Shown one piece after another: positions 9,495 to 61,927 of a stretch of 64,000 nucleotides of DNA; the first letter of the stretch is position 1, and the number at the start of each line of letters is the position of its first letter. Under the pieces are notes generated by a model. It was not told the DNA's origin and did not search any database. It saw nothing but the letters and a program-made list of their open reading frames with translations. The translations under genes and the position numbers were made by a program. The DNA is taken from positions 4,805 to 68,804 of the forward strand of contig JBDRNT010000094.1 in the NCBI GenBank assembly GCA_043810925.1, written 5' to 3'. The stretch is from Candidatus Eiseniibacteriota bacterium. Its GTDB lineage: Bacteria; Arandabacterota; Arandabacteria; Arandabacterales; Arandabacteraceae.

Positions 9495-9496
9495 CT

Positions 9497-10993: not shown

Positions 10994-11081
10994 TGTGGAG
11001 GGGGGAATGTGGTTGAAACAGGCGGAGATTCGGTGTATAATGGGACGCGTTGGAATGTGTTCAGCCACAGGAGGTGTCAAT

Positions 11082-16060: not shown

Positions 16061-16082
16061 CGGCAGGAGGAGAATTCCGCAG

Positions 16083-27800: not shown

Positions 27801-29941
27801 CTCATGAACCCAGGGAAGGAGAGGAGACGCTTGTCAAGGTACGGGTGGCCAATGCGGGCCACACTGTTGCTGAGAACTTCATGGTCAGCACCTACGACGG
27901 AGTGGTGGAGGAGACTCATCTGATCGGATCGGCCGTGGTGGCCGGGTTGGGGGCGAAGTCCGACACCCTGATAACTTTCGCGTGGGAGATGCCGGGTGGC
28001 CAGACGACACGTCTCGTTTACGCGACAATAGATCTTGAGAATGCTGTGCTGGAGCGCTTTGAGCTCAACAACCAGGCGCACCGGCGTTTCTACCTGTCGC
28101 TTGCCGATCTCAAAGTGACCATAGGCGACGTGCGGCCGTTCCCGGTGGTCATCGGAGAGTCCCTTACTGTGGATGCTCACCTGGAGAACGTCGGCTCCGA
28201 TGTCGCGAGGGATTTCGAGTTGGTGTTCTATGACAGCCTCAGAGTAGAATCGCGGCGTTTTGCCGGCTTTCAGGTGGACTCTCTTTGCCCGGGTGAAAGC
28301 ATGGATTTCAGCGTGCGCCACAGGATCGATTCATTCAGGGGCGACTTCGTGCGACTCTGGGGTGTCGTCGATCCTGCCCAGGGAGTGCTTGAGTACCATA
28401 CGAGCAACAACAACTCTTGTGTTGATGTCAACTCGGGTATTGGCGGCAGACTGCTGACGACGCCCTACGAGATTGCAGTTACTGCTCTGAAGTCTTCAAG
28501 GACGTGTTTTGTGCTCGAGTCGCCGTCTTGCCAGTGCCTTGTCGCATTCGGCAGCAGCCTTCCTTACAACGCCGTCTTTGAGACACTCGGAGCAGGCGTA
28601 GATGTATCGCGAAACACCATAGTCTTCAGCTCCGGCGGTGATATAGCGGGATTCGATGTCAAGGACAGCGTCCTGTTCGTGATCAGCTCGGCTGAGGAAT
28701 ATGAAACACAGCCGGCGGTCTGGGGTGAGAATGTAGCATGGATATCCGAGGGTCCTGCATCCACGAGTCTGCGGCTGAGGAGAGCTTCAGGTGACATAGA
28801 GACCATACGCAGCATAACGACGGGCAGCATTCGGAACCCCGATCTTTCGAACGCCCTGATCGTCTGGGAAGAGGACCTTGGTGGAGGATCCGATATTGTG
28901 GGTTACGATCTTGAGGCCGACACCATCGTGGTGCTTTGCGGCGACGACGGCGACCAGGTGAATCCGGCTGTGTGGGGTGACAAGCTGGTGTGGGAGGATC
29001 ACTCCGCTGACGGAGGAGATGTCCGGGCACTCGACTTCAGGTCCTTATCGAGGCTGGATGTAGCCGCCGGTGACGGCCTGCAGCGGCACCCGGTTGTGTA
29101 CGGCGACATCGTGGTCTGGCAGGATTCGAGGAACGGCAACTGGGACATATACGGTTACAGTTTCTCCAACGGCAGTGAGTTTCCCATATCACGCCAGGTG
29201 GACGATCAAGTACTTCCGTCCTTGAGTGACAGTACTGTTTTGTGGGTTGACCGGCGCGAGCCCGGTGAGATAGTGCTGGGTCTCAGATTCGGAGCCGACC
29301 GCAGGGTTGCAAGCGTGAGGGAATTCGAGGCTTTTTCTCAGGATGGCATGATCAAGGTCCGAAGCAATGTTGAGCAGGAGGACGACGGCCTCGTGTTCAA
29401 CATCTACCGTTACCCGGACGATCGTCCAATGTCTGAAGACAGGTACTCTCACCTGCGGTATCAGTTCGAACTCGGGACCGACTCGGTCCATGTCTATGCG
29501 GATACGTTGGTCGCTGCCAGGAGATCCTTCTACTACACCCTCGGCATAATTGACGGCTACGGAGTTGAGACCTACTATGGACCCGTTGAGGGCAGGGCTT
29601 ACGACGCGTCCCCACCCGGCTTTGTAATCGGGGCTCCTCACCCTAATCCTTTCAGACATGACGTTACCGTGACCTTCGGCTTGCCCAGAGCGCTCAGGCG
29701 GTCCGCCGACAGTTCATGGCCCGATCCGGCCGGTGAGACAAGCAGTGTTGAAATGGCGGTGTATTCCGCGGATGGCCGGCTTGTCCGGACAATCCAGCGG
29801 GGCCATCTTACTCCAGGTTACTACAGGCTGTCCTGGGACGGCATGAACGAAAACGGCCGGCCTGTGAGTTCCGGAGTCTACTTCATCACGGCCTCCGCCG
29901 GTGACGTCGTCACCTCCCGAAAGGTCATTCTGGCCAAGTAG
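24821..29941 (+). CDS. Giant secreted multidomain protein: an M6 (immune inhibitor A-like) metalloprotease, FG-GAP/VCBS beta-propeller repeats, CARDB-like domains and a T9SS C-terminal sorting domain.
   Basis: ATGA overlap with the previous gene. Signal peptide. HEFGHLLGLPDLYD is the M6 zinc site. Repeated DLDGDG...GWP FG-GAP blades. C-terminus ...HPNPFRHDVTVTFGLP...SGVYFITA...KVILAK is a T9SS CTD. Confidence 0.8.
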   Translation: MKRQLAVRLLVLLAVLLAGRSACAVALRPDVFERLHSEGRVEHVRQMLELKRAEEPVDRNVKTAGSLRALVLMIDFDDVAADTILHSRQHFNEMLFSLDNELSMRNYYLWSSYGALDITGEIYGWFRVKEPLSYYANSNAGMDAYPRNAQKMIEDALDAADYRVDFSQFDNDGPDGIPDSGDDDGYVDFLMVVHAGQGYEQTMNPGHIHSHVSTIRARPVDGVYARMYSTEPEDGPVGTFAHEFGHLLGLPDLYDITLNTYGLGMWSLMAYGSWGEGGRRPVGLDPWCKTQLGFLEPVVIDSNYVEYELPCIEDGPDALKLWSQGETGKQYFMVENRRSKSWDSWLTWFDEGLLVYHVDERHQDNSSDSGHLISLEQADGRFDLEERRLWGFGSDGGDPYPGETGNRTFSWWTRPDNQSNEGSPTQVSLRNISDPGDVMTFDVEVWSPVILFEDYRIDDESGDGDGEPDPGEEINLGLRFRNRGITCDDLTVTLRTDDPHVTPGETVVLLEAIEGGSLSGVSNISMQIDETVPEPYDVEFEITIEGTHAYGIYQSTDRFVLGVPVRRLPGWPVFAGDGMTASPAVADLDGDGVKEIIVGCNDGMLYAWKLDGTPVPGWPAVVGAPVHSKPAVCDVDLDFRSEVVVTSRDGRVHVFENDGTPCPGWPRSTGDQILSSALLADIDDDGIVEIICGSTDGQVYAWNENGGLVSGWPVDMGGSEVWMSAAAADVDGDHLEEVVIGGYGGPLYVLDGNGEVLSGWPAPVGRGCGDGSPCVADFDGDGTLEIAISGLFSNSIYLVGLDGRIRPGWPRWPFNCHELSNPVPADIDNDGLPEVAVSTSCGTIVAWNANGSQCNAIEAHAPDPIRGCEPIFLDIDGNGSIEGLAGTSEYGDGEVYVFGSEGVLTGFPIDVGGEVAATPVVDDLDGDGNAEIVAVTKAGQVYVWRFVGPKQTGRIEYSQSRSNVWNTGHYDFVPHDNIPLADLALSAGDISLDPHEPREGEETLVKVRVANAGHTVAENFMVSTYDGVVEETHLIGSAVVAGLGAKSDTLITFAWEMPGGQTTRLVYATIDLENAVLERFELNNQAHRRFYLSLADLKVTIGDVRPFPVVIGESLTVDAHLENVGSDVARDFELVFYDSLRVESRRFAGFQVDSLCPGESMDFSVRHRIDSFRGDFVRLWGVVDPAQGVLEYHTSNNNSCVDVNSGIGGRLLTTPYEIAVTALKSSRTCFVLESPSCQCLVAFGSSLPYNAVFETLGAGVDVSRNTIVFSSGGDIAGFDVKDSVLFVISSAEEYETQPAVWGENVAWISEGPASTSLRLRRASGDIETIRSITTGSIRNPDLSNALIVWEEDLGGGSDIVGYDLEADTIVVLCGDDGDQVNPAVWGDKLVWEDHSADGGDVRALDFRSLSRLDVAAGDGLQRHPVVYGDIVVWQDSRNGNWDIYGYSFSNGSEFPISRQVDDQVLPSLSDSTVLWVDRREPGEIVLGLRFGADRRVASVREFEAFSQDGMIKVRSNVEQEDDGLVFNIYRYPDDRPMSEDRYSHLRYQFELGTDSVHVYADTLVAARRSFYYTLGIIDGYGVETYYGPVEGRAYDASPPGFVIGAPHPNPFRHDVTVTFGLPRALRRSADSSWPDPAGETSSVEMAVYSADGRLVRTIQRGHLTPGYYRLSWDGMNENGRPVSSGVYFITASAGDVVTSRKVILAK

Positions 29942-35572: not shown

Positions 35573-36148
35573 ATGGGTGCATTGACTGAAATAAGGTGGC
35601 ATGGAAGAGGAGGGCAGGGTGCCAAAACCGCGTCATTCCTGCTTGCCGAGTCGCTTATAGACCAGGGCAAGTTCGCACAGGGCTTCCCTGACTACGGACC
35701 GGAGCGCATGGGTGCCCCGATAAGGGGATACAACAGAATATGCGACGAACCCGTGAGTCTCCACTGTGATGTGGCGGCTCCCGGTATCGTGATTGTCCTG
35801 GATCCGACCCTGATCGGAACTGATGACATCACGGGTGGACTTCTTAAGGACGGCACGGTGCTGGTCAATTCTCCGAGTGGTGCGGAGGAGATCAGGAAAG
35901 AGCTCGGTCTCGAGGGCGGCAGTGTGTATACGGTGGATGCCACGGGGATTGCTCTTGATGAGATCGGTAGACCCATTCCAAACCTACCCATGATAGGCGC
36001 GCTCCTAAAGGTGACCGGTCTGGCGGACATAGACAGCATGACGTCGATTGTGCGCAAGAAGTTTGAAGGCAAATTCACAAAGCCGATCATCGACGGCAAC
36101 GTAAGAGCTATGAAAAGGGCTTACGAGGAGGTAAGAGCAGAGAAATGA
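35573..36148 (+). CDS. porG: 2-oxoacid:ferredoxin oxidoreductase gamma subunit.
   Basis: 191 aa. The GRGGQGAKTAS motif of POR/VOR gamma subunits. Confidence 0.85.
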   Translation: MGALTEIRWHGRGGQGAKTASFLLAESLIDQGKFAQGFPDYGPERMGAPIRGYNRICDEPVSLHCDVAAPGIVIVLDPTLIGTDDITGGLLKDGTVLVNSPSGAEEIRKELGLEGGSVYTVDATGIALDEIGRPIPNLPMIGALLKVTGLADIDSMTSIVRKKFEGKFTKPIIDGNVRAMKRAYEEVRAEK

Positions 36149-36453
36149 AGAAGAAGGGGTGGAAGGAACTGGCGATTGGCGGACGAATAGATGAGGCGGG
36201 CTGCGCCGAACAATATGAAACCGGTTCGTGGCGCACCTTCAGGCCCGTAAGAGATGAGGAAAAGTGTACTCACTGTCTCAGGTGCTGGATCTACTGCCCT
36301 GATTCTGCCATAAAGGTTGAGGACGGCAAGGTGGTCGGCCTCGATCTCGATCACTGCAAGGGCTGCGGCATATGCGCCGAGGTCTGTCCGCCGAAGATAC
36401 ATGCGATCGAGATGATCCAGGAGGCCGAATTGAAGCAGAAGGAGCATGAGTGA
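36145..36453 (+). CDS. porD: 2-oxoacid:ferredoxin oxidoreductase delta subunit (2x[4Fe-4S] ferredoxin).
   Basis: CTHCLRCWIYCP and CKGCGICAEVCP. 4-nt overlaps on both sides. Confidence 0.85.
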   Translation: MKKKGWKELAIGGRIDEAGCAEQYETGSWRTFRPVRDEEKCTHCLRCWIYCPDSAIKVEDGKVVGLDLDHCKGCGICAEVCPPKIHAIEMIQEAELKQKEHE

Positions 36454-37646
36454 TGAAAACCATTGCAGAGAAGACGGTGATTGCACTCACCGGCAACGAT
36501 GCCGTTGCGGAGGCGATGAGGCAGGTCAATCCGGATGTCGTGGCCGCCTATCCGATAACGCCCCAGACCGAGCTCATGCACAAGTTCGCCGACTATGTTT
36601 CCGACGGCTGGGTTAAGACCGAGTTCGTGCTCGTGGAAAGCGAGCACAGTGCAATGAGCGCCGCCGTAGGTGCCTCGGCCGCGGGCGCCAGGGTGATGAC
36701 CGCTACATCTGCCAACGGGCTGGCCCTGATGTGGGAGATCCTCTACATAGCTGCTTCCACGCGTTGCCCGATAGTGATGGGGGTCGTAAACCGCGCCCTG
36801 AGCGCACCCATAAACATACACTGCGACCACAGCGATTCGATGGGTGCAAGAGATGCGGGCTGGATACACCTGCATTCCGAGAACTCACAGGAAGCATACG
36901 ATAACACTGTCCAGGCCGTCAGAATCGCCGAGAACAGGGATATCCTGCTGCCGGTGATGGTCTGCCTCGACGGATTCATCTTAAGCCACACGCTCGAGCC
37001 GGTTGAGCTCTTAAAAGACGCGACCGTGCAGAACTTCATCGGGGATTTCAAACCCGTACACGATCTTCTGAATACCGACAAACCGATGACATTCGGACCT
37101 CTGGACTTCCATGATTTCTACTTCGAACACAAGATTCCTCAGATCGAGGCAATGAAGAAAGCGCCGGAGGTTATAAGGAGCGTTGCGGCCGAATTCGAAA
37201 GTCTTTCCGGACGCCACTACGGCCTTGTCGAGCGCTACTTCACTGATGATGCGGAGCGCATAATAGTCGCGATCGGCTCAACATGCGGGACTACAAAGGC
37301 GGTCGTCGACAAACTCAGGGCCGACGGCCAGAAGGTGGGGCTCCTTAAGATAAGGAGCTTCAGACCGTTTCCGTATGCCGAGGTGAGAGAAGCGCTTTCG
37401 GGTGCAAAGGCGGTCGGGGTTCTCGACAGATCGCATTCATTCGGAGCCCAGGGCGGGCCGGTGATGATCGAAACAAGGTGTGCCCTTTACCACAACGCCG
37501 AGGTCCCCATCAAAGGCTATATCTACGGTCTCGGCGGACGTGACATGTCCGCGGCGCTTGTCGAGCAGGCATTCGAAGAACTCAAAGCACTGGTCTCGAG
37601 CGGCAGAAGCTCGGATGAAATCGGTTTTCTGGGTGTGAGGGAATAG
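36450..37646 (+). CDS. porA: 2-oxoacid:ferredoxin oxidoreductase alpha subunit.
   Basis: 398 aa POR alpha family protein (YPITPQTE...). Confidence 0.9.
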   Translation: MMKTIAEKTVIALTGNDAVAEAMRQVNPDVVAAYPITPQTELMHKFADYVSDGWVKTEFVLVESEHSAMSAAVGASAAGARVMTATSANGLALMWEILYIAASTRCPIVMGVVNRALSAPINIHCDHSDSMGARDAGWIHLHSENSQEAYDNTVQAVRIAENRDILLPVMVCLDGFILSHTLEPVELLKDATVQNFIGDFKPVHDLLNTDKPMTFGPLDFHDFYFEHKIPQIEAMKKAPEVIRSVAAEFESLSGRHYGLVERYFTDDAERIIVAIGSTCGTTKAVVDKLRADGQKVGLLKIRSFRPFPYAEVREALSGAKAVGVLDRSHSFGAQGGPVMIETRCALYHNAEVPIKGYIYGLGGRDMSAALVEQAFEELKALVSSGRSSDEIGFLGVRE

Positions 37647-37659
37647 GAGGTTTTTTAAA

Positions 37660-38619
37660 GTGGCAAGTCTAAAAGAGCTTTCCAAGCGAGAAGATCTTCT
37701 CACCGGTGGGCACCGGGCCTGTGCGGGGTGCGCCGCGACCATCGTCGCGCGCCAGGTGTTGCTGGCTGCGGGAAAAGATGTGGTCGTGGGATGTGCTACC
37801 GGGTGTCTCGAAGTTGTCACCACGATCTTTCCCTACACAGCGTGGAAGGTGCCCTACATACACAATGCCTTCGAGAACGTGGCCTCCACCGTGAGTGGGG
37901 TGGAGTCGGCCTACAGGTCGCTTAAGCGGCAGGGCAAGATCACCAAGGAAATGAAGTTTATCGCCTTCGGCGGTGACGGCGGTACGTACGATATCGGGCT
38001 TCAAGCGCTTTCGGGGATGGCCGAGCGGGGACACCGGATACTCTACATCTGCTACGACAATGAGGCTTATATGAATACCGGTATCCAGCGCTCGAGCGCT
38101 ACACCCATCGGGGCGGCGACATCGACATGCCCGGCGGGTGACGAGATACCCGGCAAGACCCAGTACCACAAAGACATGACGAAGATCATGGCCGCCCACA
38201 GAATTCCCTATGTCGCCCAGGCATCGCCGAGCAACTATGCGGATCTCATGCGTAAGGTCGAGAAAGCCCTTTCAAAGGACGGCCCGGGTTTCATCAACAT
38301 CCTGTCACCCTGCCACAGGGGCTGGCGTTACCCGATGGAAAAGACGATAGAAATTGCAAGGCTGGCCGTGGAGACGTGTTTCTGGCCGCTCTATGAGTGT
38401 GATGAAGGCGTGTGGAAGATAACCTATATGCCCAAAGAGAAGCTCCCGCTCAGCGAGTTCACCGGCAAGCAGGGCAGGTTCGATCATCTCAAAGACAACC
38501 CGGAGGTGCTCCAGGCAGGACAGGATGAGATCGACAGACGCTGGCGTGAGCTCCAGACACTTTCGGGCATCGGCAATCTCTGTGAAGCTGCGTGCGAAGA
38601 GCGTAAGGACGGCAATTGA
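37660..38619 (+). CDS. porB: 2-oxoacid:ferredoxin oxidoreductase beta subunit (TPP-binding).
   Basis: GTG start. The TPP motif GGDGGTYDIG and the Cys cluster CAGC...CATGC. Confidence 0.9.
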   Translation: MASLKELSKREDLLTGGHRACAGCAATIVARQVLLAAGKDVVVGCATGCLEVVTTIFPYTAWKVPYIHNAFENVASTVSGVESAYRSLKRQGKITKEMKFIAFGGDGGTYDIGLQALSGMAERGHRILYICYDNEAYMNTGIQRSSATPIGAATSTCPAGDEIPGKTQYHKDMTKIMAAHRIPYVAQASPSNYADLMRKVEKALSKDGPGFINILSPCHRGWRYPMEKTIEIARLAVETCFWPLYECDEGVWKITYMPKEKLPLSEFTGKQGRFDHLKDNPEVLQAGQDEIDRRWRELQTLSGIGNLCEAACEERKDGN

Positions 38620-39095
38620 GAAGAAGTCCCGCCGATAGTCTGGCTGTGGCGGTCGGCACCGGTATCTACTCCGGCTACTTCCCCATATTTCCCGGCACGG
38701 TGGGCAGTGCCGTCGGGATCGTGCTCTACCTGGTCCTTGTCCGTTTGGGTATTCTCGCCCAGGACTTCTCGGCCGCCTGGCTTGTCACCGTGGGTGTCGT
38801 CTTCGCAGGGGGCGTTCTGTCCGCCCACAGGTGCGAGACCCTGTTCGGTCAGGACAACAAGCGGATCGTGATCGATGAGGTTTGGGGCATGCTGATCGCG
38901 CTCTTCATGCTGCCCGTGTCCTGGTGGTGGATGCTCTGGGCATTTCTGATCTTCCGTTTTCTCGACATAGTCAAACCCTTTCCGGCACGGCGGGCTGAAC
39001 GCATGGGCGGCGGCCTTGCGATCATGCTGGATGACGGCATTGCAGGGGCGTATACAGTTCTTATCCTCCAGATACTAAAAGCCATTCTTGGGTGA
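38616..39095 (+). CDS. pgpA: Phosphatidylglycerophosphatase A.
   Basis: 159 aa membrane protein with the PgpA family motifs GTVGS and DIVKP. Confidence 0.8.
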   Translation: MRRSPADSLAVAVGTGIYSGYFPIFPGTVGSAVGIVLYLVLVRLGILAQDFSAAWLVTVGVVFAGGVLSAHRCETLFGQDNKRIVIDEVWGMLIALFMLPVSWWWMLWAFLIFRFLDIVKPFPARRAERMGGGLAIMLDDGIAGAYTVLILQILKAILG

Positions 39096-41997: not shown

Positions 41998-42663
41998 ATG
42001 ACCCGGTGTCAGGCTGCACCCACGATATCCGCGGTGGAGAAAGTCTCTCGCAAGCAGGAGTATCTTCTCAGGCTCTCGGACGGCTCCACGATCAGGGTTC
42101 TCAAAGAGCACCTGACGCGTTCCGGACTTGAAGAAGGACGGCCGTTGGGGGAGGATACCAGACGTGAGATCGCCGACTCGTATGAATACGCCAAAGCCAG
42201 GGAAATCGCGCTCCGGCTCCTGAAGACGCGGCCGCGGACAGAGGAGGAATTGAAGCGGCGTTTCCGAAAATCTGATCTCAGGGTGAAGATCTGGGAACGG
42301 GTTCTGGATGATCTTAAGGACGAGGGGCAGGTAGACGATCGAGTGTTCGCGCAACTCTGGATCAGGGAGAAGATCGGCAGGGCCGGCTCAGGGAGAAAGC
42401 GTATCGCAAGCGACTTAAGATCGAAGGGGATCGACAGGACAATAGTCGAAGAAGAGATCGCCAGGAATTACGATGACGCTGATGAGACCGAGATAGCAAA
42501 ACGGCTTGCGATCAAACGGTTGGGCAGGTTGAAATCCCTGCCTGCAGGTGTGGCAAGGCGGCGGATCTACGGTCTTCTTCTGAGACGCGGCTTTCAGTCC
42601 GATGTTGCATCGGCCGCACTCGAAGCAGCTCTTGAAACGGCAAGCAGGGAAGAGACGACATGA
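41998..42663 (+). CDS. recX: RecA regulator RecX.
   Basis: ATG 1 nt after the recA stop. Three-helix repeats typical of RecX. Canonical recA-recX-alaS order. Confidence 0.75.
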   Translation: MTRCQAAPTISAVEKVSRKQEYLLRLSDGSTIRVLKEHLTRSGLEEGRPLGEDTRREIADSYEYAKAREIALRLLKTRPRTEEELKRRFRKSDLRVKIWERVLDDLKDEGQVDDRVFAQLWIREKIGRAGSGRKRIASDLRSKGIDRTIVEEEIARNYDDADETEIAKRLAIKRLGRLKSLPAGVARRRIYGLLLRRGFQSDVASAALEAALETASREETT

Positions 42664-45254
42664 AAGCGGATGAGCTACGCAGATTGTTCTTAGAGTTCTT
42701 CAAGGAACGGGGTCACACCGTGGTGCCGAGCGCCTCGCTTGTGCCCGAGGGTGATCCCTCGCTTCTTTTCAATATCGCGGGCATGGTCCAGTTCAAGCAG
42801 TTTTACGCAGCCAGGGGGGAGATCCCGTTCACCAGAACCGCTTCGATTCAGAAGTGCCTTAGGGCTAATGATCTTGAAGAGGTGGGCCGTACGATAAAGC
42901 ACCATACCTTCTTCGAGATGCTCGGGAATTTCTCCTTCGGCGACTACTTCAAGGAAGAGGCGATTGACTGGGCGTGGGAGTTCCTCACGGAAGTACTCGG
43001 GATAGACCCCGGGCGCCTCTATGTCACGGTCTTCAGGGATGACGACGAAAGTGAGAAGCTGTGGGCCGAGCGCATCGGCGTACCCATGAGCCGCATCTAC
43101 CGTCTGGATGAGTGTGACAACTTCTGGGGTCCGGCGGGTCTTACAGGTGCGTGCGGACCCTGCTCGGAGATCCACTTCGATCTGGGCGAGGACATGGGCT
43201 GCGGAAAGGCCGACTGTACGCCCGCATGCGATTGCGACCGCTTCGTCGAAGTCTGGAACCTGGTGTTCCCTCAGTTCTTCCAGAGGGAAGACGGCAGCCG
43301 CGGGCCGCTGGAACGCAGGGGTGTCGATACGGGCATGGGGCTTGAGCGTCTCGCCATTGTGTGCCAGGGTGTTAAGTCCACCTATGAAACCGATCTCCTT
43401 AAGCCCATACGTGACTTCGTCGTGGATGAGGCCGGTCTTGAGACCATGGATGCAATCCAGGAGGTCGGCGCAAGCGTGATCTCCGATCATGCACGGGCGC
43501 TTTGCTTCGCCATAAGCGAGGGAGTGCTCCCGTCCAATGAAGGCCGTGGCTACGTCATACGGCGGATCCTGCGCCGGGCTGTCGTCAAGGCGATGGAGCT
43601 GGGAATCGAAGAAGCGTTCCTGTTCAAGGTGGTCGGCAGGGTGATTGACGTAATGCTGAGTGCATACCCGGAGGTTGCTGAGAACCGGGAGAAGATCGCG
43701 CTTATAGTAAAGACGGATGAGGAACGCTTCCAGAGGACGCTGGCGCGCGGGATGGCGATATTCAAGGATACCTTAAGTGACCTGGACGCCAGGGGAGAAA
43801 AGACGATTTCGGGAGAGACGGTGTTCAAACTCTACGATACGTATGGCTTCCCGGTTGAGATCACGCAGGAGCTCGCGGGGAACCACGGGCTCGCCATCGA
43901 TCTCGATGCCTTTGAAAGCGAGATGGAAAAGCAGCGCTGCCGCGCACGGCAGGCGAGCCGGATCGGGGCTGATGGCGAGACCGCCGACGATGTGGTGCGC
44001 GCCCCCGATAACTTCGTTGGCTACGATAACCTTGAAGTCCCGACCGTGGTCTCGACGATTACCGGCGAAGGTGAAGAGATCGTAATTGAGCTTGAACGAA
44101 CGCCGTTCTATCCGGAGGGTGGAGGCCAGGTGGGGGACGTTGGAATCCTGGTCGGAAACAGCGGCAGAGGTACGGTCAAGGAAGTGAGATGGCTGGGCGG
44201 AAGCAAGATTGCGCATCGCGTCGTGGTTACCCAGGGAAGCCTCAAGGCGGGTGAGGGTGTCGTCGCGAAAGTGGATGTCGCACGGAGAAAGGCAAGCCAG
44301 CGAAACCACACGGCGACCCATCTTCTGCATGCGGCGCTCAGGTCCGTCCTCGGCGGGCACGTGCGGCAGTCGGGTTCGCTTGTCGGTCCGGACAGACTGC
44401 GTTTCGATTTCACACACTATGAACCGCTGTCCGATGAGGATGTTGCTGCCATAGAGGACATCGTGAACAGCCGTGTTCTTGACAACATACCCGTCAGGGC
44501 ATCAATGGAAGCATTTGAGGATGCAAAGGCGAAGGGCGCCATAGCGTTGTTCGGAGATAAATACGGGCAACAGGTCAGGATGATAGATATCGACCAGACG
44601 AGCTGCGAGCTCTGTGGCGGTACCCATGTCAGGTCAACCGGTGAGATAGGCGGGTTCAGGGTGGTGTCCGAGTCTGGAATCGCGGCCGGCGTGCGGAGGA
44701 TCGAAGCGGCGACAGGTGAGGCTGCGATCGCAATCGGCAGGGATGCCGCGAGGGAGCTCGAGCAGATTGCTTCGATTCTCAAGGTGCCGGTCCACGATCT
44801 CAGCGACGGGGCACGCAAGACCATCGAGAAGGTCAAGGCGCTCGAGAAGGAGGTCTCGGAGCTCAGGCAACGGCTGGCCGGAAGCGAGGTCGACGATATA
44901 CTGGCAAACGTCAAGGATGTCGACGGCATCAAGGTCGTGAGTGCCAGGGTTACGGCCCCGAACGTCGAGATACTCAAGCACCTGACCGACAAGATAAAAG
45001 AGCGGCTGCCCTATGGTGTCGTCTGCGTCGGCAGCGCGGTCGGAGACAGGGCGATCATTGTTGTGGGAGTCGACCCCGCGGTGGCCGAAGAGAAGGGTGT
45101 CAAGGCGTCGCTCATAGCAAAGAAGCTCGGGGAGATGGTGGGTGGAAAGGGCGGAGGCAAGGATACATTCGCCCAGGCGGGTGGCAGAAACGTGGACAGT
45201 CTGGTTGCCACGCTTGAGCGGTGTGTGGAGGTGGTAGCAGGTCTTGTCAAGTAA
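42660..45254 (+). CDS. alaS: Alanine--tRNA ligase.
   Basis: 864 aa with class II aaRS motifs and the HxxxH...CGGTH editing domain. Confidence 0.95.
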   Translation: MKADELRRLFLEFFKERGHTVVPSASLVPEGDPSLLFNIAGMVQFKQFYAARGEIPFTRTASIQKCLRANDLEEVGRTIKHHTFFEMLGNFSFGDYFKEEAIDWAWEFLTEVLGIDPGRLYVTVFRDDDESEKLWAERIGVPMSRIYRLDECDNFWGPAGLTGACGPCSEIHFDLGEDMGCGKADCTPACDCDRFVEVWNLVFPQFFQREDGSRGPLERRGVDTGMGLERLAIVCQGVKSTYETDLLKPIRDFVVDEAGLETMDAIQEVGASVISDHARALCFAISEGVLPSNEGRGYVIRRILRRAVVKAMELGIEEAFLFKVVGRVIDVMLSAYPEVAENREKIALIVKTDEERFQRTLARGMAIFKDTLSDLDARGEKTISGETVFKLYDTYGFPVEITQELAGNHGLAIDLDAFESEMEKQRCRARQASRIGADGETADDVVRAPDNFVGYDNLEVPTVVSTITGEGEEIVIELERTPFYPEGGGQVGDVGILVGNSGRGTVKEVRWLGGSKIAHRVVVTQGSLKAGEGVVAKVDVARRKASQRNHTATHLLHAALRSVLGGHVRQSGSLVGPDRLRFDFTHYEPLSDEDVAAIEDIVNSRVLDNIPVRASMEAFEDAKAKGAIALFGDKYGQQVRMIDIDQTSCELCGGTHVRSTGEIGGFRVVSESGIAAGVRRIEAATGEAAIAIGRDAARELEQIASILKVPVHDLSDGARKTIEKVKALEKEVSELRQRLAGSEVDDILANVKDVDGIKVVSARVTAPNVEILKHLTDKIKERLPYGVVCVGSAVGDRAIIVVGVDPAVAEEKGVKASLIAKKLGEMVGGKGGGKDTFAQAGGRNVDSLVATLERCVEVVAGLVK

Positions 45255-45444
45255 CGACCCGCGAGAGTCGGACATCAGCATCAAGTGTATCTGGACGTGC
45301 GGACTCTGCAGTGCCGTTTGCCGCGACATGGCGATATCTTACAGGCCGGATTCCGTAGAGGTGGATAAGTCCGTCTGCTCGGGATGTCTTGTCTGTGTCA
45401 AGGTGTGCCCGGCCGGCATGCTGGGGGAAGAGACCTTTGCGTGA
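45244..45444 (+). CDS. Small 2x[4Fe-4S]-type ferredoxin, the presumptive electron donor for the adjacent reductase.
   Basis: 66 aa. CIWTCGLCSAVC and CSGCLVCVKVCP. Overlaps alaS by 11 nt and overlaps the GGR start. Confidence 0.6.
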   Translation: MSSNDPRESDISIKCIWTCGLCSAVCRDMAISYRPDSVEVDKSVCSGCLVCVKVCPAGMLGEETFA

Positions 45445-46615
45445 TTTCGATGTCGTTGTAGTTGGGGGTGGATGCTCGGGTCTGTGGGCGGCGAGGGCGG
45501 CGGCCATGGCCGGCGCGAACACGCTGCTCGTTGAGAAAGCCACGCGCATCGGCGAACGTATCGTGTGTGCGGAGGGTGTGGGTGCCGATGGCATGGCTGA
45601 GCTCGTGGATCTTAAGCCCGAATGGGTAGCAACAACCATAGACCGGGTGAATCTGTTTGCCCCCGGCGAGAAAACCGTAGAGTTCACGGAGCAGGGTTGC
45701 GGTTACGTGCTCAACAAGGGGATTTTCCTTCTCGGGCTCTCGCGTATGGCCGCGGAGGCCGGTGTCGAGATGTGGCCGGGGACCCGGGCGACTGCGGTAA
45801 AGGCGCTGGATTCAGGTGGTGTACGGATCGACGTCGAAGCACCGGGCCGTAATCGAACGATAACGGCCGGAGCGGTGGTCGCTGCCGACGGTGTTGAAGC
45901 TTCCATTGCAAGACAGGTGGGGATACATGACGGCCTCCGGGCTGAAGACGTTTTCTCATGCGCGCAGTATACGGTTGCCCCGATCGATGCGGACCCTCAT
46001 ACGGTGGAATTTCACTTCGGAACGGAAATATCCCCCGGCGGATACGCCTGGGTCTTCCCAAAGGGTGATTCAGTCGCCAATGTCGGTGTCGGTGTCATCC
46101 CCGGTGTGTCCGCTGATCGTAAGCCCGCCGAATACCTTGAGACGTTTAAGCGTCGTCGTTGTCCGGAATCGAAGATACTCGCTTATGTGGTAGGAGGGGT
46201 GCCGACCGTCAAGGACCCGTCGAGGGCGTCGAAGTCGGGAGTCTTCCTGGCCGGGGACGCTGCGGGGATCACGGACCCGGTCTCGGGCGCGGGAATCGTG
46301 CCGGGAATGGAGTCGGGGGCCGTGGCCGGTGAGCATGCCGTCAGGTATGCTGCGACCGGCAGTGATGGCCGTGCCGTGGAAAAGGAGTTCGCCGCGAGCC
46401 TCAAATCACTTCTCAAGGACCGGCGCATCAGGTACGCTGTCAGAAAGGTGCTGTCCAATATGGACGATAAGGAACTTGCCAGGATGATCGAGGCCACCGG
46501 TGAGTATGTGGCCGGCGGCAAGACGATACGGGGCGATCCGTTCCGGCTTGTGAAATTTATGGTCAAGGTAATGCCGAACACGTTTGGGATCATCAAACAC
46601 ATTGTGAGGGTCTAA
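45431..46615 (+). CDS. Geranylgeranyl reductase family FAD-dependent oxidoreductase.
   Basis: DFDVVVVGGGCSGLWAARAAA FAD fold. GGYAWVFPKGD GGR-family motif. In-frame TTG start at 45431. An alternative ATG lies at 45389. Confidence 0.8.
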   Translation, partial: RPLRDFDVVVVGGGCSGLWAARAAAMAGANTLLVEKATRIGERIVCAEGVGADGMAELVDLKPEWVATTIDRVNLFAPGEKTVEFTEQGCGYVLNKGIFLLGLSRMAAEAGVEMWPGTRATAVKALDSGGVRIDVEAPGRNRTITAGAVVAADGVEASIARQVGIHDGLRAEDVFSCAQYTVAPIDADPHTVEFHFGTEISPGGYAWVFPKGDSVANVGVGVIPGVSADRKPAEYLETFKRRRCPESKILAYVVGGVPTVKDPSRASKSGVFLAGDAAGITDPVSGAGIVPGMESGAVAGEHAVRYAATGSDGRAVEKEFAASLKSLLKDRRIRYAVRKVLSNMDDKELARMIEATGEYVAGGKTIRGDPFRLVKFMVKVMPNTFGIIKHIVRV

Positions 46616-46616
46616 G

Positions 46617-47360
46617 GTGAACAGAGTATACGAAGGCATGCTGAAGATGGCTGACGCCAGGGGGGCAGGATACGTGGTCCTTCTCGATCCGGACAAGTAC
46701 TCCGCTTCGGAGCTGGGCGGTCAGGCGGAGATGATAAGCACGTATGCGGATCTCATCTTTGTCGGCGGTAGTCTGTGCGTGAGGCACGATTTCGGGGAGG
46801 CCGTAAGAAGCATAAAGGCGGCATCGAGTGTGCCCGTCGTCATCTTTCCCGGCGATTCGACGCAGGTGTCCCCGCATGCCGATGCGTTGCTCTTTCTTTC
46901 CCTGGTGAGCTCACGAAACGCCGATCTCCTGATCGGCGAACATGTGAAGGCAGCTCCTGTCATCCGCCGTCACGATCTCGAAGTGATCCCGGTAGCCTAC
47001 ATGCTGGTCGAATCCGGACAGACGACATCGGTGCAGTATATGAGCCAGTCCCTTGCGATTCCGAGGGGAAAGCCCGAGATAGCCATGGCCCATGCCCTGG
47101 CCGGTGAGTATCTGGGAATGAAGCTCGTGTTTCTTGAAGCGGGAAGCGGTGCGGACCGGCATGTGCCCGTGGAGATGGTCCAGGCCGTGAGCGACTATGT
47201 CTCCATCCCGGTGATCGTAGGAGGCGGAATAAAGACTCCCGACGATGCCAATCGGGTTGCCCGGGCGGGGGCCTCATTTGTCGTTACGGGTGATGTCATA
47301 GAGAAAAGCGGCAACGCAGAGACACTCAAGGAATTCACTGCTGCGGTTCATTCAGCATGA
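46617..47360 (+). CDS. Geranylgeranylglyceryl phosphate synthase / PcrB-family prenyltransferase (TIM barrel).
   Basis: GTG start 1 nt after the GGR stop. IPVIVGGGIKTPDD and VVTGDVIE C-terminal motifs of the GGGPS/PcrB family. Confidence 0.8.
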   Translation: MNRVYEGMLKMADARGAGYVVLLDPDKYSASELGGQAEMISTYADLIFVGGSLCVRHDFGEAVRSIKAASSVPVVIFPGDSTQVSPHADALLFLSLVSSRNADLLIGEHVKAAPVIRRHDLEVIPVAYMLVESGQTTSVQYMSQSLAIPRGKPEIAMAHALAGEYLGMKLVFLEAGSGADRHVPVEMVQAVSDYVSIPVIVGGGIKTPDDANRVARAGASFVVTGDVIEKSGNAETLKEFTAAVHSA

Positions 47361-47373
47361 ACGTGGAAAGGAG

Positions 47374-48447
47374 TTGGTCAATACGAAAGCCCTAATCCTG
47401 AGCGGCGGCAAAGGTACCAGATTGCGTCCCATAACACACACGAGTGCCAAGCAGCTCGTGCCGGTTGCCAACAAGCCCATCCTCTTCTACGGGATCGAGG
47501 CCATACGTGAGGCAGGCATAACCGATATCGGTATTATCGTCGGGGACACCGCCGGCGAGATCAAGGCCGCTGTCGGTGACGGCAGCAAGTTCGGGGTGAC
47601 GACCAGCTACATCCAGCAGGAAGCGCCGCTGGGGCTTGCCCATGCGGTGAAGATAGCGCACGACTTCGTGGGGAAGGACCGTTTCATAGTCTATCTCGGA
47701 GATAATCTTATAATCGACGGTATCAAGGACTTCGTCCACAGATTCGAGGCCAATTCGCCCGACTGCCAGATACTGCTGGCACATGTACCGAACCCACAGA
47801 ACTTCGGTGTGGCCGAGCTGTCAGGCGACAGGGTCGTGAAACTCGTTGAGAAACCAAAGCAACCCAAGACCGATCTCGCCCTGGTCGGAGTCTATATGTT
47901 CGATGAAAGCGTGTTTGAGGCTACCGACAATATCAAGCCGTCATGGCGGGACGAGCTCGAGATAACCGATGCCATACAGTATCTGATAGAGAAGGGTTCA
48001 GACGTGCAGTTTCAGATAATAAGCGGCTGGTGGAAAGACACCGGGAAGCTCGAGGACATGCTTGAGGCGAACCGGATGCTGCTTGAGCGGCTGAAGACCA
48101 GGATCGACGGGGAGGTCGATGACGGGTGCAAGATGGATGGCGTCGTGATCGTGGAGAAGGGGGCCAGGATAACCAACTGCACGCTCCGGGGGCCGCTGAT
48201 AATAGGCGAGGGAGCGACGATAACCGATTCGTACATAGGTCCCTTTACGTCGATCAACTACGGTGTAGAGATCCGCGGCAGTGAGATCGAGCACAGCATC
48301 GTGCTTGAGAACAGCCGGATCTTTGACGTCGGCGGAAGGATCGAAAGCAGTCTGGTCGGCAAGAACGTTCTGATCGAGAAGCGTGCCAAACCGCCCAGGG
48401 CCTACAGGTTCATGGTGGGCGACTACGGCCAGATCGAGCTTCAATAG
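47374..48447 (+). CDS. rmlA: Glucose-1-phosphate thymidylyltransferase, long form with a C-terminal left-handed beta-helix.
   Basis: LILSGGKGTRLRPIT nucleotidyltransferase motif plus C-terminal hexapeptide repeats. Confidence 0.85.
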   Translation: MVNTKALILSGGKGTRLRPITHTSAKQLVPVANKPILFYGIEAIREAGITDIGIIVGDTAGEIKAAVGDGSKFGVTTSYIQQEAPLGLAHAVKIAHDFVGKDRFIVYLGDNLIIDGIKDFVHRFEANSPDCQILLAHVPNPQNFGVAELSGDRVVKLVEKPKQPKTDLALVGVYMFDESVFEATDNIKPSWRDELEITDAIQYLIEKGSDVQFQIISGWWKDTGKLEDMLEANRMLLERLKTRIDGEVDDGCKMDGVVIVEKGARITNCTLRGPLIIGEGATITDSYIGPFTSINYGVEIRGSEIEHSIVLENSRIFDVGGRIESSLVGKNVLIEKRAKPPRAYRFMVGDYGQIELQ

Positions 48448-48452
48448 GAGGG

Positions 48453-49322
48453 GTGACCTTGAGGGTACTCGTAACGGGCGCAAGGGGCATGCTTGGGTCC
48501 GACATGTGCGAGGTGCTCGGAACCGACTATGAGGTCACACCGTACGATATTGAGGACTTCGACATCGTCGACCTGGAGCCCACGCTGGCAGCCGTTCGCA
48601 AGGTGTCACCACAGGTGATAATCCACCTCGCGGCTCTCACCGATGTGGATGCGTGCGAAGACGATCTTGAAAAGGCGCTGAACGTCAATTCCGTGGGCGC
48701 AATGAATGTCGCGATGGCGGCCTCCGAGGCCGAAGCCTATCTTGTCTACATCAGCACCGATTACGTATTCGACGGTACCAAGGGGGAGCCCTACGTCGAG
48801 ACCGATGTGCCGAATCCCATCAATCACTATGGTCTTTCGAAGCTCCGGGGTGAACGCCACGTGCAGGACCTTGTTGCCAGACACCTTATCGTGAGGACTT
48901 CATGGCTCTTCGGTCCCAACGGCAGGAACTTCATCGACACCATCGTCGCGCGGGCATCCGGCGGCGGCGCGCTTGAAGTCGTCAATGATCAGAGCGGCTC
49001 GCCCACCTATACACTGGATCTGGCCCGCGGCATACGTCAGGCTTTCGAGCGCGAGGTCGAGGGACTGCTCCACATGACAAACACAGGTGTGGCTACGTGG
49101 TTTGACTTGGCGTCCTATGCGGTCGGGCTCGCGGGTATCAAGACGGAAATAAACGCCGTTTCGAGTGCGGAGTATCCGACCAGGACGAAGCGACCGCCTT
49201 ACTCGGTTCTTAAGAGTGCTGTCGGCGAAGCGGCGGGCATTGACCTGCTGCCCTGCTGGCAGGAGGGCGTCAGGGATCATCTTCGCAGAAAGAAACTGCT
49301 CAAAGAGGGGGCGGCCAGGTGA
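48453..49322 (+). CDS. rmlD: dTDP-4-dehydrorhamnose reductase.
   Basis: GTG start. VLVTGARGMLG Rossmann motif. YxxxK SDR catalytic motif. Confidence 0.85.
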   Translation: MTLRVLVTGARGMLGSDMCEVLGTDYEVTPYDIEDFDIVDLEPTLAAVRKVSPQVIIHLAALTDVDACEDDLEKALNVNSVGAMNVAMAASEAEAYLVYISTDYVFDGTKGEPYVETDVPNPINHYGLSKLRGERHVQDLVARHLIVRTSWLFGPNGRNFIDTIVARASGGGALEVVNDQSGSPTYTLDLARGIRQAFEREVEGLLHMTNTGVATWFDLASYAVGLAGIKTEINAVSSAEYPTRTKRPPYSVLKSAVGEAAGIDLLPCWQEGVRDHLRRKKLLKEGAAR

Positions 49323-49909
49323 CAGACCGGGAATGGATCAGTGATTCACTTCGAGCGGCAAGCGAGGTCTTTGCCGAGACCGCCGCGTCGTGTCGGGATG
49401 AGATTGCGGCGGCCAGCCGGGCCGCGGCAGAGTGTATCAAGGCCGGCGGGAAGCTCATGCTGTGCGGCAACGGCGGGAGCGCGGCAGATGCCCAGCACAT
49501 CGCGGCTGAGATGACGGTCAAGATGAAACGGGTGAGATCTCCTTTGCCGGCGTTTGCCCTGACCACCAACACATCGCTTCTTACGGCGCAGGCAAATGAT
49601 CTCGGCTTCGATACGGTCTTCTCACGGCAAATCGAATCTCTTGGCCGTGAAGGCGATGTGCTTATCGCGATCAGCACGAGCGGGAACTCGCCTAACATCT
49701 TGCGGGGTGCCGAGACGGCCCGGGATATGGGAATCAAGGTTGTGGGTCTGACCGGGCGTGACGGGGGCAAGCTGGCCCCCATGTCCGATATCGCGATCTC
49801 CGTGCCTTCAGACGATGTCCCGAGGATACAGGAGGCCCATATCGCAATTGGTCATCTTATCTGTGAATTTGCAGAGAACACTTTCTTCCCGGACAGCCCC
49901 GGTGTTTGA
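49319..49909 (+). CDS. gmhA: Phosphoheptose isomerase (SIS domain).
   Basis: KLMLCGNGGSAADAQH and ISTSGNS SIS motifs. Confidence 0.85.
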   Translation: MTDREWISDSLRAASEVFAETAASCRDEIAAASRAAAECIKAGGKLMLCGNGGSAADAQHIAAEMTVKMKRVRSPLPAFALTTNTSLLTAQANDLGFDTVFSRQIESLGREGDVLIAISTSGNSPNILRGAETARDMGIKVVGLTGRDGGKLAPMSDIAISVPSDDVPRIQEAHIAIGHLICEFAENTFFPDSPGV

Positions 49910-60296: not shown

Positions 60297-60622
60297 AGAA
60301 TCAGTGGGTTGTCAACATCATTGCCTGCTTGAGAGGATCATGCTCGTCCATCTTGATTCCGCACTCGCCCGGCGGAATCCCGCCACACCGGCCGGATCTG
60401 CGCCATGAGATCCCGACTTGAGCGGAAACCTCAGAAGAACCGCCAACGCTGGAAGGAGGTTGACAATACTTTGAGACTTAGGTAGGTAAGGAGTACGAAA
60501 CGCTGAGTACCATACTGCTCTGGGTCTGTGCATGACGCCGCTATACGGATCAGCATGCGGAGCAGTCGGATAACTCGTGCCCTTGCGACGGCCACGAGAG
60601 TTGCAGAAAGCGAGGACCGACG

Positions 60623-61717: not shown

Positions 61718-61927
61718 GGAGCCGCGTGAGGTGTCCAGCAAGAGATTGCATCAAGGCAGAGCGGTCTGTGCAGGTGAAGCCGGCTTTCGAGGGCCGACGC
61801 TCGGGAGGCAGCAGATACGCGACACGAATGAGACACTGGAACCATTGAAGGCGCTTTACATGATTGGAAACGTCCAATCATGAAGATGATTCGCGGCCGT
61901 TAAACAGAGTGAAACTGGAGTCGAATA

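Follow-up and report, generated by a model that had tools for sequence, protein, structure and literature searches.

Why does a bacterial genome carry, packed together on one strand, genes that recall the ether-lipid chemistry of archaea? In an uncultured Eisenbacteria genome, positions 45244-47360 of the window (the whole stretch of 64,000 nucleotides that was analysed) hold three tightly packed genes on the same strand, encoding a ferredoxin, a geranylgeranyl reductase (GGR) and a GGGP synthase (GGGPS). We propose that this trio combines a ferredoxin-dependent saturation module (ferredoxin plus GGR) with a group-II GGGPS directly behind it, in a Candidatus Eisenbacteria lineage, and that it serves in ether-lipid synthesis; we put the probability of this reading at roughly 65%. 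The features on which the argument draws are the following:

35573-38619, + strand: four-subunit 2-oxoacid:ferredoxin oxidoreductase (gamma, delta (36145-36453), alpha and beta)
38616-39095, + strand: pgpA (phosphatidylglycerophosphatase A), in the same co-directional gene string
42660-45254, + strand: alaS, conserved upstream neighbour of GGGPS in FCB-group genomes
45244-45444, + strand: small 2x[4Fe-4S] ferredoxin of 66 aa (Pfam Fer4 families), proposed electron donor of GGR
45437-46615, + strand: GGR family flavoprotein of 392 aa, Thermoplasma/euryarchaeal-like subfamily (GGR_cat, TIGR02032, PDB 3oz2)
46617-47360, + strand: group-II GGGPS of 247 aa (TIGR01769, NF003198, PDB matches)
47374-49909, + strand: rmlA (long form), rmlD and a GmhA/DiaA-family SIS protein, conserved downstream neighbours

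The first-pass annotation had placed the three reading frames correctly, between alaS and rmlA, and all three gene identities were borne out by Pfam and NCBIfam models above their cut-offs, with matches too strong by far to arise randomly. The genes are indeed tightly coupled: the ferredoxin gene begins with a TTG, preceded by GGAGG at a distance of 11 nt, and shares 11 nt with the end of alaS (stop at 45254), the true start of GGR is a TTG at 45437 (with GGGGGAAGAG upstream) that gives an 8-nt overlap with the ferredoxin stop, and GGGPS starts with a GTG after a 1-nt spacer behind the GGR stop. The GGR gene itself thus stands, with its listed start at 45389 corrected to 45437. The ferredoxin product matched Fer4_10 (E=2.5e-7) and Fer4 (E=6e-7), both beyond the cut-offs, and has eight cysteines in two motifs, CIWTCGLCSAVC, which is Cx3Cx2Cx3C and so carries one residue more than the canonical motif, and CSGCLVCVKVCP, which is canonical. 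All eight cysteines are kept in the orthologues directly upstream of GGR in six other loci (L001-L005 and L081), and Fer4-annotated genes hold this position in L087/L088. Some gene callers overlooked the ferredoxin gene, for instance in L081.

The GGGPS product matched the Pfam family PcrB (PF01884, E=1.5e-42, residues 19-242 of 247) and passed the GGGP equivalog model TIGR01769 (201.9 bits, cut-off 161.55) as well as NF003198 (279.9 bits, cut-off 247), and it remained far below the cut-offs of the group I model TIGR04146 (A. fulgidus type; 50.3 vs 320 bits) and the heptaprenyl model NF003197 (30.5 vs 260 bits). The closest PDB structures are all of group II (4jej of F. johnsoniae, 2e-50; 4mm1 of M. 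thermautotrophicus, 2.8e-47; 6jo3, 1.1e-45), whereas group I (2f6u, 1.3e-7) and PcrB (3vzx, 9.6e-6) structures matched weakly. An identity as PcrB, which the first-pass annotation had named as a finding that would speak against its reading, was rejected on both the model scores and the ranking of the structures. Tyr141 of the window protein aligns with the Trp of the 'vgW' stretch of mtGGGPS (which we take to be W141), the aromatic-anchor position, and F or Y is kept here across alignment A1. Such an aromatic anchor was defined as a feature of hexameric group II GGGPS (PMC7888582). By analogy with active homologues (PMC7852524, PMC7888582) the window enzyme is predicted to form GGGP from GGPP and glycerol-1-phosphate.

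The GGR product is identical (100% over 100% of its length) to a protein of a Candidatus Eisenbacteria MAG at NCBI (P0121), where it is labelled merely as 'NAD(P)/FAD-dependent oxidoreductase'. It matched GGR_cat (E=1.2e-23) and TIGR02032 (189.3 bits, cut-off 158.8), and its best PDB match was 3oz2, the digeranylgeranylglycerophospholipid reductase of Thermoplasma (7e-45, residues 18-375 of the 408-aa listed ORF). The alignment with 3oz2 contains VVGGGCSG (GxGxxG), the conserved Cys (IVCAEG), PGGYAWVFP and LAGD, corresponding to the family motifs set out in PMC10821996 (FAD Rossmann GxGxxG, conserved Cys, PxxYxWxFP and LxGD). The best-scoring specific models were those of archaeal lipid reductases, NF041160, NF041080 and NF041385 (163.6, 120.6 and 55.7 bits), although equivalog membership was not reached (cut-offs 780, 580 and 700, the first being that of the Thermoplasmatales equivalog). 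Since the protein falls under every one of these cut-offs, the sequence does not settle which substrate it uses. Of the other reductase types considered, ChlP/BchP scored below the cut-offs (TIGR02023, 103 vs 343; TIGR02028, 61 vs 505) and MenJ (NF045655) gave 52.2 bits against a cut-off of 700. The view that a ChlP role is unlikely was upheld by these scores (103 bits vs 164 for the archaeal lipid reductase model) and by the 64 kb window, in which no photosynthesis genes were found; a menaquinone-type GGR, likewise named beforehand as adverse to the reading, was rejected in the same way (52 vs 164 bits). In a neighbour-joining tree the window GGR belongs to a clade with a bootstrap of 80, and the sister clade (bootstrap 100) mixes GGRs of KSB1, Latescibacteria and TA06 with archaeal GGRs of the Thermoplasma type. 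Among known enzymes, both GGGPS and GGR are nearest to those of archaeal ether-lipid synthesis.

The surroundings of the trio turned out to be conserved to a different extent for its different parts. GGGPS adjoins alaS in 47 of 67 evaluable FCB genomes, and in five further GTDB loci the ferredoxin and GGR genes sit between the two; the position behind alaS is common to Bacteroidota, Ignavibacteriota, Zixibacteria, Latescibacterota, KSB1, Gemmatimonadota and Eisenbacteria, and GGGPS identity correlates with alaS identity (Spearman 0.46, p=2.5e-4). The first-pass reading stood for the enzymes (a GGGPS that is not PcrB, a GGR that is not like ChlP or MenJ) and failed for the idea of a single three-gene cassette set in a housekeeping operon: GGGPS directly follows alaS in most of the FCB-group phyla sampled, and what is specific to the lineage is the insertion of ferredoxin and GGR alone. 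In evolutionary terms GGGPS would be old and vertically inherited downstream of alaS in FCB-group bacteria, and ferredoxin-GGR would be a mobile two-gene unit inserted after alaS in this Eisenbacteria lineage. Most FCB genomes have GGGPS after alaS without an adjacent GGR, indicating that adjacency is not needed for function.

The full order alaS-ferredoxin-GGR-GGGPS-rmlA recurs in L001-L005, L081, L087/L088 and L089 (L001 and L089 being short contigs on which the flanking genes are only partly present), and about ten loci that share the window order were confirmed. Except for L081 (83%), the GGRs of these full-order loci are merely 43-51% identical to that of the window, so the order has been kept under divergence. 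Many database matches of GGGPS and GGR came from contigs of the same size (e.g. 6869, 16473, 47951, 65208 and 344132), and such shared contigs imply further loci with this order. In TA06 a more distant GGR (38% identity) adjoins GGGPS in different surroundings. Upstream, the pgpA-cinA-recA-recX-alaS block is kept in many loci; downstream, the long-form rmlA (47374-48447) scored 484.9 bits with TIGR01208 and the SIS protein fell slightly under the gmhA equivalog cut-offs.

The association of GGR with a ferredoxin extends well beyond this lineage. An ORF with a ferredoxin motif (CxxCxxCxxxC, less than 400 nt upstream, same strand) precedes GGR in 66 of 85 evaluable GGR loci, some of which are near-duplicates. 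The same order, with overlapping genes, was found on an archaeal contig, whose ferredoxin is 42% identical to that of the window, and a Latescibacteria protein (P0217) is a natural fusion of ferredoxin and GGR. Archaea and bacteria alike have kept ferredoxin followed by GGR as a module of two genes. Clusters of UbiA, ferredoxin, GGR and a PgsA-like gene were found in other bacterial lineages, where they tie the module to glycerolipid synthesis. The archaeal precedent invoked for the window, a GGR adjoining its own ferredoxin gene, holds (PMC10821996, PMC12042123); according to Isobe et al. 2014, as cited in these two papers, GGR of M. acetivorans requires the ferredoxin of the neighbouring gene. 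On the other hand, NADP(H) was reported as the reducer of the Thermoplasma GGR, the nearest solved relative (PMC10821996), which counts against the ferredoxin model. The window ferredoxin matches the description of a GGR partner (small, 2x[4Fe-4S], adjoining GGR in a conserved arrangement), and a role as donor is predicted by analogy; the window GGR probably saturates a lipid tail with electrons delivered by this ferredoxin.

From these observations we infer substrates, an electron path and an order of steps. GGGPS would couple geranylgeranyl diphosphate to glycerol phosphate, forming the first ether bond. Characterised homologues of GGGPS prefer G1P and also accept G3P. Low-potential electrons would then reach the FAD cofactor of GGR by way of the small 2x[4Fe-4S] ferredoxin, and GGR would hydrogenate the C=C bonds of one geranylgeranyl chain, or of two if a second one is added. 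The 2-oxoacid:ferredoxin oxidoreductase encoded 7 kb upstream, in an arrangement shared with the relatives L081 and L087, is a possible source of reduced ferredoxin for GGR. The end product would be an isoprenoid glycerol ether lipid of the phytanyl type, partly or fully saturated.

How many chains such a lipid would bear depends on DGGGPS. Within the 64 kb window we found no genes for DGGGPS, G1P dehydrogenase, CarS or GGPP synthase, and none of the Eisenbacteria-type loci showed a DGGGPS gene in the 10 kb around GGGPS; the lone UbiA-family gene near GGGPS in Eisenbacteria relatives passes the model for decaprenyl-phosphate phosphoribosyltransferase (NF008977, 277.6 vs 234) and is thus not DGGGPS. 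A complete archaeol-type pathway, in which a DGGGPS-like UbiA encoded elsewhere adds the second chain and the saturated diether phospholipids are finished by CdsA, PgsA and PgpA to give a mixed membrane, therefore has to contend with the absence of this gene from the window and the neighbouring loci, with the labels of the UbiA subfamily linked to ferredoxin-GGR (only KSB1 or unclassified, none of Eisenbacteria) and with Eisenbacteria not being among the phyla given as having both GGGPS and DGGGPS (PMC7852524). We regard it as possible though rather doubtful, given that many FCB and related phyla have both genes and that bacterial CdsA, PgsA and PgpA accept archaeal intermediates (PMC7852524), that pgpA lies in the same gene string as the trio and that in other bacteria ferredoxin-GGR is flanked by the genes of a UbiA prenyltransferase and a PgsA-like enzyme. 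If the lineage is without DGGGPS, the operon could instead yield a saturated one-chain phytanyl-glycerol-phosphate, acylated or glycosylated by bacterial enzymes into natural hybrid lipids, an outcome that we hold to be unlikely. Were it true, such isoprenoid-ether/acyl-ester or glycosylated hybrids would be a lipid class undescribed in bacteria, and a living case of chimeric lipids inside a single molecule and not of mixed membranes.

Similarly improbable, in our estimate, is that ferredoxin-GGR saturates another isoprenoid (the side chain of menaquinone or the polyprenyl-phosphate carrier of the downstream glycan genes) and neighbours GGGPS incidentally. Archaeal GGR paralogues, several with ferredoxin neighbours, have been proposed to act on quinones and dolichols (PMC10821996), a glycan-assembly cluster (rmlA, rmlD, flippase and glycosyltransferases) follows immediately downstream, and GGR passes the superfamily model only; yet the pair was inserted exactly between alaS and GGGPS, the latter at a 1-nt distance, and stayed there as the GGRs diverged, the TA06 GGR abuts GGGPS in another context, and the MenJ score is far below that of the lipid reductase model. 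A recent horizontal acquisition of the trio from archaea as a single cassette might be suggested by the archaeal relatives of all three proteins and by the identity (about 38-42%) of GGR and ferredoxin to their counterparts on the archaeal contig, but this we consider highly improbable. The GC content of the trio (0.575-0.600, window range 0.543-0.600) bears no sign of recent transfer, the place of GGGPS behind alaS in seven bacterial groups and the parallel between GGGPS and alaS identities argue against it, and the best 120 homologues listed for GGGPS, like the best 120 for GGR, are metagenome or MAG proteins with bacterial organism names wherever one is attached, P0228 (the archaeal contig) being the sole archaeal case identified among them.

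The question whether bacteria really produce lipids of the archaeal style matters for the 'lipid divide' and for how early membranes are pictured. Archaeal-type lipid genes in FCB bacteria were reportedly described by Peterhoff in 2014. Because genes of this kind are known from related bacteria, the trio is a well-organised new example and not a new type of system; the novelty lies in the phylum and the gene arrangement and not in the mechanism, and the practical gain is modest. The presence of such lipid genes in FCB bacteria has already been published (Villanueva 2021, PMC7852524), on evidence built on GGGPS and DGGGPS in which chain saturation was so far a side note, and loci of the trio type physically link a ferredoxin-driven reductase to the ether-bond enzyme. 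A compact three-gene construct is directly testable in E. coli, and annotation may be aided by the conserved ferredoxin-GGR module and by the fixed place of GGGPS behind alaS across FCB phyla.

Among known systems, that of the Cloacimonetes is a close parallel. FCB bacteria encode GGGPS, DGGGPS and GGR, and the GGGPS and DGGGPS of Cloacimonetes yield an archaeal-type lipid in E. coli (PMC7852524). The window has in common with it a group-II GGGPS, which falls in the same FCB clade and is about 50% identical to that of Cloacimonadota loci, and a euryarchaeal-related GGR in the same genome. G1P dehydrogenase and CarS were not found in the 64 kb window; Cloacimonetes MAGs are without G1P dehydrogenase and CDP-archaeol synthase, both of which were argued to be dispensable (PMC7852524). 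However, in Cloacimonetes GGGPS and DGGGPS lie together, as L042, L074 and L078 confirmed, and their GGR was described without ferredoxin or linkage, whereas the window GGGPS is coupled to ferredoxin-GGR.

By arrangement the window pair can be likened to MA1484/MA1485 of M. acetivorans (Isobe et al. 2014, as cited in PMC10821996 and PMC12042123), also a small ferredoxin gene beside GGR, although the window pair belongs to a bacterium and is joined to GGGPS, and the first cluster motif of its ferredoxin (Cx3Cx2Cx3C) is one residue longer than the canonical form. The T. acidophilum reductase (3oz2), the closest solved GGR, has the Cys, PxxYxWxFP and LxGD motifs in common with that of the window and its locus holds a 4Fe-4S protein gene (PMC10821996), but the window GGR belongs to a separate bacterial clade. 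GGGPS of F. johnsoniae (4jej), the best solved match, agrees in fold and motifs; Flavobacteriales enzymes are dimers with a charged anchor residue, where the window protein has a Tyr like the hexameric forms. Bacteroidetes group-II GGGPS makes a C20 ether lipid whose role was stated as unknown (PMC7888582), and of the two only the window gene has an adjacent saturation module. Bacillus PcrB, finally, belongs to the same Pfam family (PF01884) but is a group-I enzyme with a C35 substrate, which the window GGGPS matches weakly (30.5 bits; PDB 1e-5); the bacterial mono-ether lipid that it makes undergoes further processing, and by analogy PcrB may serve as a model if only one chain is attached.

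Three genes on the + strand (45244-47360), which the first-pass annotation had described as an archaeal-type ether-lipid cassette inside a bacterial housekeeping operon, were recovered from the ORF listing and Pfam in the form described there; they encode a small ferredoxin, a geranylgeranyl reductase (GGR) and a group-II GGGP synthase (GGGPS). We consider the synthesis of a saturated isoprenoid glycerol ether to be their probable function (probability roughly 0.65). The genes and their surroundings are:

35573-38619, directly 5' of pgpA and in the same orientation: complete 2-oxoacid:ferredoxin oxidoreductase (gamma, delta at 36145-36453, alpha and beta subunits)
5' flank of the trio: alaS
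TTG start at 45244, + strand: ferredoxin of 66 aa carrying a pair of iron-sulfur cluster motifs (Pfam Fer4_10, E=2.5e-7; Fer4, E=6e-7)
TTG start at 45437 (ORF as listed from 45389), + strand: GGR family flavoprotein of 392 aa
GTG start at 46617, one base past the GGR stop, + strand: GGGP synthase of 247 aa
3' flank of the trio: long-form rmlA, rmlD, a GmhA/DiaA-family SIS protein and a flippase

GGAGG stands 11 nt ahead of the ferredoxin start. The alaS and ferredoxin genes overlap by 11 nt, and the ferredoxin and GGR genes by 8 nt. With the start at 45437 GGR matches, over its full length and at 100% identity, a database protein from a 78-kb contig, named 'MAG: NAD(P)/FAD-dependent oxidoreductase [Candidatus Eisenbacteria bacterium]'. 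A scan for promoters and terminators, using a consensus that may not fit the phylum, gave no excess over shuffled sequences and no site inside the trio. In the region 47374-49322, rmlD follows an rmlA of the long, archaeal-like form (TIGR01208, 484.9 bits); rmlB and rmlC were not seen in the window.

The synthase passes the cut-offs of the GGGP equivalog TIGR01769 (201.9 bits, cut-off 161.55) and of NF003198 (279.9, cut-off 247) and scores low on the Archaeoglobus group-I model (50.3) and the heptaprenyl PcrB model (30.5). The ranking of solved structures is similar, with Flavobacterium johnsoniae 4jej (2e-50), Methanothermobacter 4mm1 (2.8e-47) and further group-II enzymes on top and far weaker matches to the group-I structure 2f6u (1.3e-7) and a PcrB structure (about 1e-5), so that model and PDB scores exclude a PcrB-type (C35) synthase. 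The 'aromatic anchor' position, by which hexameric group-II enzymes are recognised (PMC7888582), is occupied by Tyr141, in alignment with a Trp in mtGGGPS and an Arg in the dimeric Flavobacterium enzyme. GGR passes the family model TIGR02032 (189.3, cut-off 158.8) and matches Pfam GGR_cat. Its best specific models are those of archaeal digeranylgeranylglycerophospholipid reductases (163.6 and 120.6 bits, both far under the equivalog cut-offs), followed by BchP/ChlP (103) and MenJ (52), and these scores exclude ChlP/BchP and MenJ roles. Among solved structures the Thermoplasma lipid reductase 3oz2 comes closest (7e-45), and the conserved Cys and the PGGYAWVFP and LAGD motifs are aligned between the two. 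A small neighbour-joining tree that included three archaeal references placed GGR together with its near relatives in a clade of their own (bootstrap 80), with a sister clade (bootstrap 100) in which GGRs of KSB1, Latescibacteria and TA06 are mixed with Thermoplasma-type archaeal GGRs. Subfamily scores, structures and tree thus set the synthase apart from PcrB and the reductase apart from quinone- and tocopherol-type enzymes, the two assignments that the first-pass annotation had named as speaking against its reading.

Another part of that annotation did not hold, namely that all three genes form a cassette placed in a housekeeping operon. Scanning a single genome of each species, we found GGGPS relatives in Eisenbacteria, TA06, KSB1, Zixibacteria, Latescibacterota, Gemmatimonadota, Ignavibacteriota, Bacteroidota, Marinimicrobia, Calditrichia and Cloacimonadota. 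In many phyla of the FCB group (GTDB loci L001-L080; 38616-49909 in the window) the gene lies within a conserved block, pgpA-cinA-recA-recX-alaS-GGGPS-(rmlA-rmlD)-SIS (GmhA/DiaA-like). In 47 of the 67 evaluable loci alaS ends less than 1 kb 5' of GGGPS, and in 45 of 68 the start of the SIS gene lies less than 3.5 kb 3' of GGGPS. Moreover, GGGPS identity to the window correlates with alaS identity (Spearman 0.46, p=2.5e-4) and the GC content around the trio is not unusual. We conclude that GGGPS has long resided behind alaS by vertical inheritance and does not belong to an inserted cassette; on composition and synteny a recent horizontal transfer of the trio was also rejected.

What is confined to the closest relatives is the presence of ferredoxin and GGR between alaS and GGGPS. 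The order alaS-ferredoxin-GGR-GGGPS was found in the GTDB loci L001-L005 (GGGPS 65-72% identical) and the metagenome loci L081, L087/L088 and L089, and alaS-ferredoxin-GGR is visible on the truncated contig L107. GGR identity across the loci with all three genes is merely 43-51% (83% in L081), indicating that the gene order was retained through much divergence. Many database matches to GGGPS and GGR sit on contigs of the same size, an indication that the arrangement is shared by a sizeable uncultured clade. In a TA06 genome GGR lies immediately 5' of GGGPS, without ferredoxin and without alaS.

The ferredoxin-GGR pair is a module in its own right. The ferredoxin gene precedes GGR in every locus of the ferredoxin-GGR-GGGPS type, with all eight Cys kept, and a one-residue insertion in its first motif (Cx3Cx2Cx3C) is kept in the six aligned loci (L001-L005 and L081). 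In the 85 evaluable GGR loci (a metagenome scan for GGR relatives plus the earlier loci, a few of them near-duplicates), a CxxCxxCxxxC ORF was found on the same strand at most 400 nt 5' of GGR in 66, fused in one, downstream in one and absent in 17. The fused case, P0217 of Latescibacteria (487 aa, L082 10001-11464), carries an N-terminal 2x[4Fe-4S] ferredoxin domain naturally joined to GGR, and its gene is away from GGGPS. An archaeal contig (with eIF2-alpha, PAC2 and Cas4) has the same order with a 4-nt overlap, its ferredoxin being 42% identical to that of the window. The GGR of M. acetivorans requires a ferredoxin encoded at its own locus, and 4Fe-4S neighbours also occur beside the GGRs of A. 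fulgidus and T. acidophilum (PMC10821996, PMC12042123). In L081 the ferredoxin (9733-9939) was missed by the gene caller of the source and the GGR start was placed late (369 aa vs 392 aa); annotation of the module's small ferredoxins in public data is probably incomplete.

On further bacterial contigs the ferredoxin-GGR pair is flanked by a UbiA-family prenyltransferase (L083 4874-7737, recurring in L084, L096, L098, L105, L125, L128, L133, L148, L152 and L154) and, in several of these loci, by a PgsA-like CDP-alcohol phosphatidyltransferase, a cluster that is a candidate bacterial ether-lipid operon. These neighbours tie the ferredoxin-GGR module to glycerolipid synthesis independently of the window locus. 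The UbiA subfamily concerned has the motifs NQIxDIExD ... YYxxRFxxxYPxF and no NCBIfam model above 41 bits. Its profile retrieved about 117 clusters labelled at most 'KSB1' or 'bacterium', KSB1 being the sole phylum name; none was labelled Eisenbacteria, which is uninformative for the window genome.

For the saturated ether, GGGPS would first link a C20 prenyl diphosphate to glycerol phosphate through an ether bond. Ferredoxin, possibly reduced by the four-subunit 2-oxoacid:ferredoxin oxidoreductase (likewise upstream of pgpA in the relatives L081 and L087), would then pass electrons to the FAD of GGR, which would saturate the chain. Prenyl transfer depends on the allylic double bond, so full saturation must come after ether formation; a partial reduction of GGPP could precede it. 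That GGR would serve another isoprenoid seems to us unlikely. Even if a saturated ether is made, a full diether pathway appears doubtful. A gene for DGGGPS, the UbiA-family enzyme adding the second chain, is absent from the 64-kb window, as are genes for G1P dehydrogenase, CarS (CDP-archaeol synthase) and GGPP synthase. A UbiA gene does occur in the glycan cluster of Eisenbacteria relatives, about 1-4 kb 3' of the SIS gene (L003, L004, L005, L007, L013, L040, L064, L068 and L076); it scores as decaprenyl-phosphate phosphoribosyltransferase (NF008977, 277.6 bits, cut-off 234) and is excluded as DGGGPS. At the corresponding place the window carries a flippase and glycosyltransferases. When all loci were screened for motifs and transmembrane segments, true DGGGPS-like genes adjoined GGGPS only in Cloacimonadota, as already published (PMC7852524).

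Elsewhere in the window we observed an aldehyde:ferredoxin oxidoreductase followed by a B12-binding radical SAM protein (8253-9494), DUF4416 (9461-10033) and an EamA transporter (6420-10877 in all), a 390-aa protein of baeRF_family10 (bacterial archaeo-eukaryotic release-factor-like family 10; 16026-17198, E=1.3e-30) adjoining protein-L-isoaspartate methyltransferase, and a predicted secreted protein of 1706 aa (24821-29941) with an M6 (immune inhibitor A) peptidase, FG-GAP repeats, CARDB and a C-terminal FlgD-Ig domain. Three ORFs had no significant Pfam match: 2329-2823 (164 aa), 10995-12497 (500 aa) and 60431-61741 (- strand, 436 aa). The last is overlapped by an ORF at 60623-61717 (+) with a weak CBAH match short of E=1e-5 significance, and the coding strand there is uncertain.

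In Bacteroidetes the group-II GGGPS and its C20 ether product are known, while its role is not (PMC7888582). GGGPS, DGGGPS and GGR are known from FCB bacteria, and the function of the first two was proven in E. coli (PMC7852524). In the literature searched, no paper connects Eisenbacteria (Candidatus Eiseniibacteriota, under 'Bacteria candidate phyla' in NCBI taxonomy) with these three genes, and none reports a bacterial ferredoxin-GGR-GGGPS operon. To these known systems the present locus makes two modest additions, a coupling of saturation to ether-bond formation at the operon level and the fixed synteny of alaS and GGGPS.
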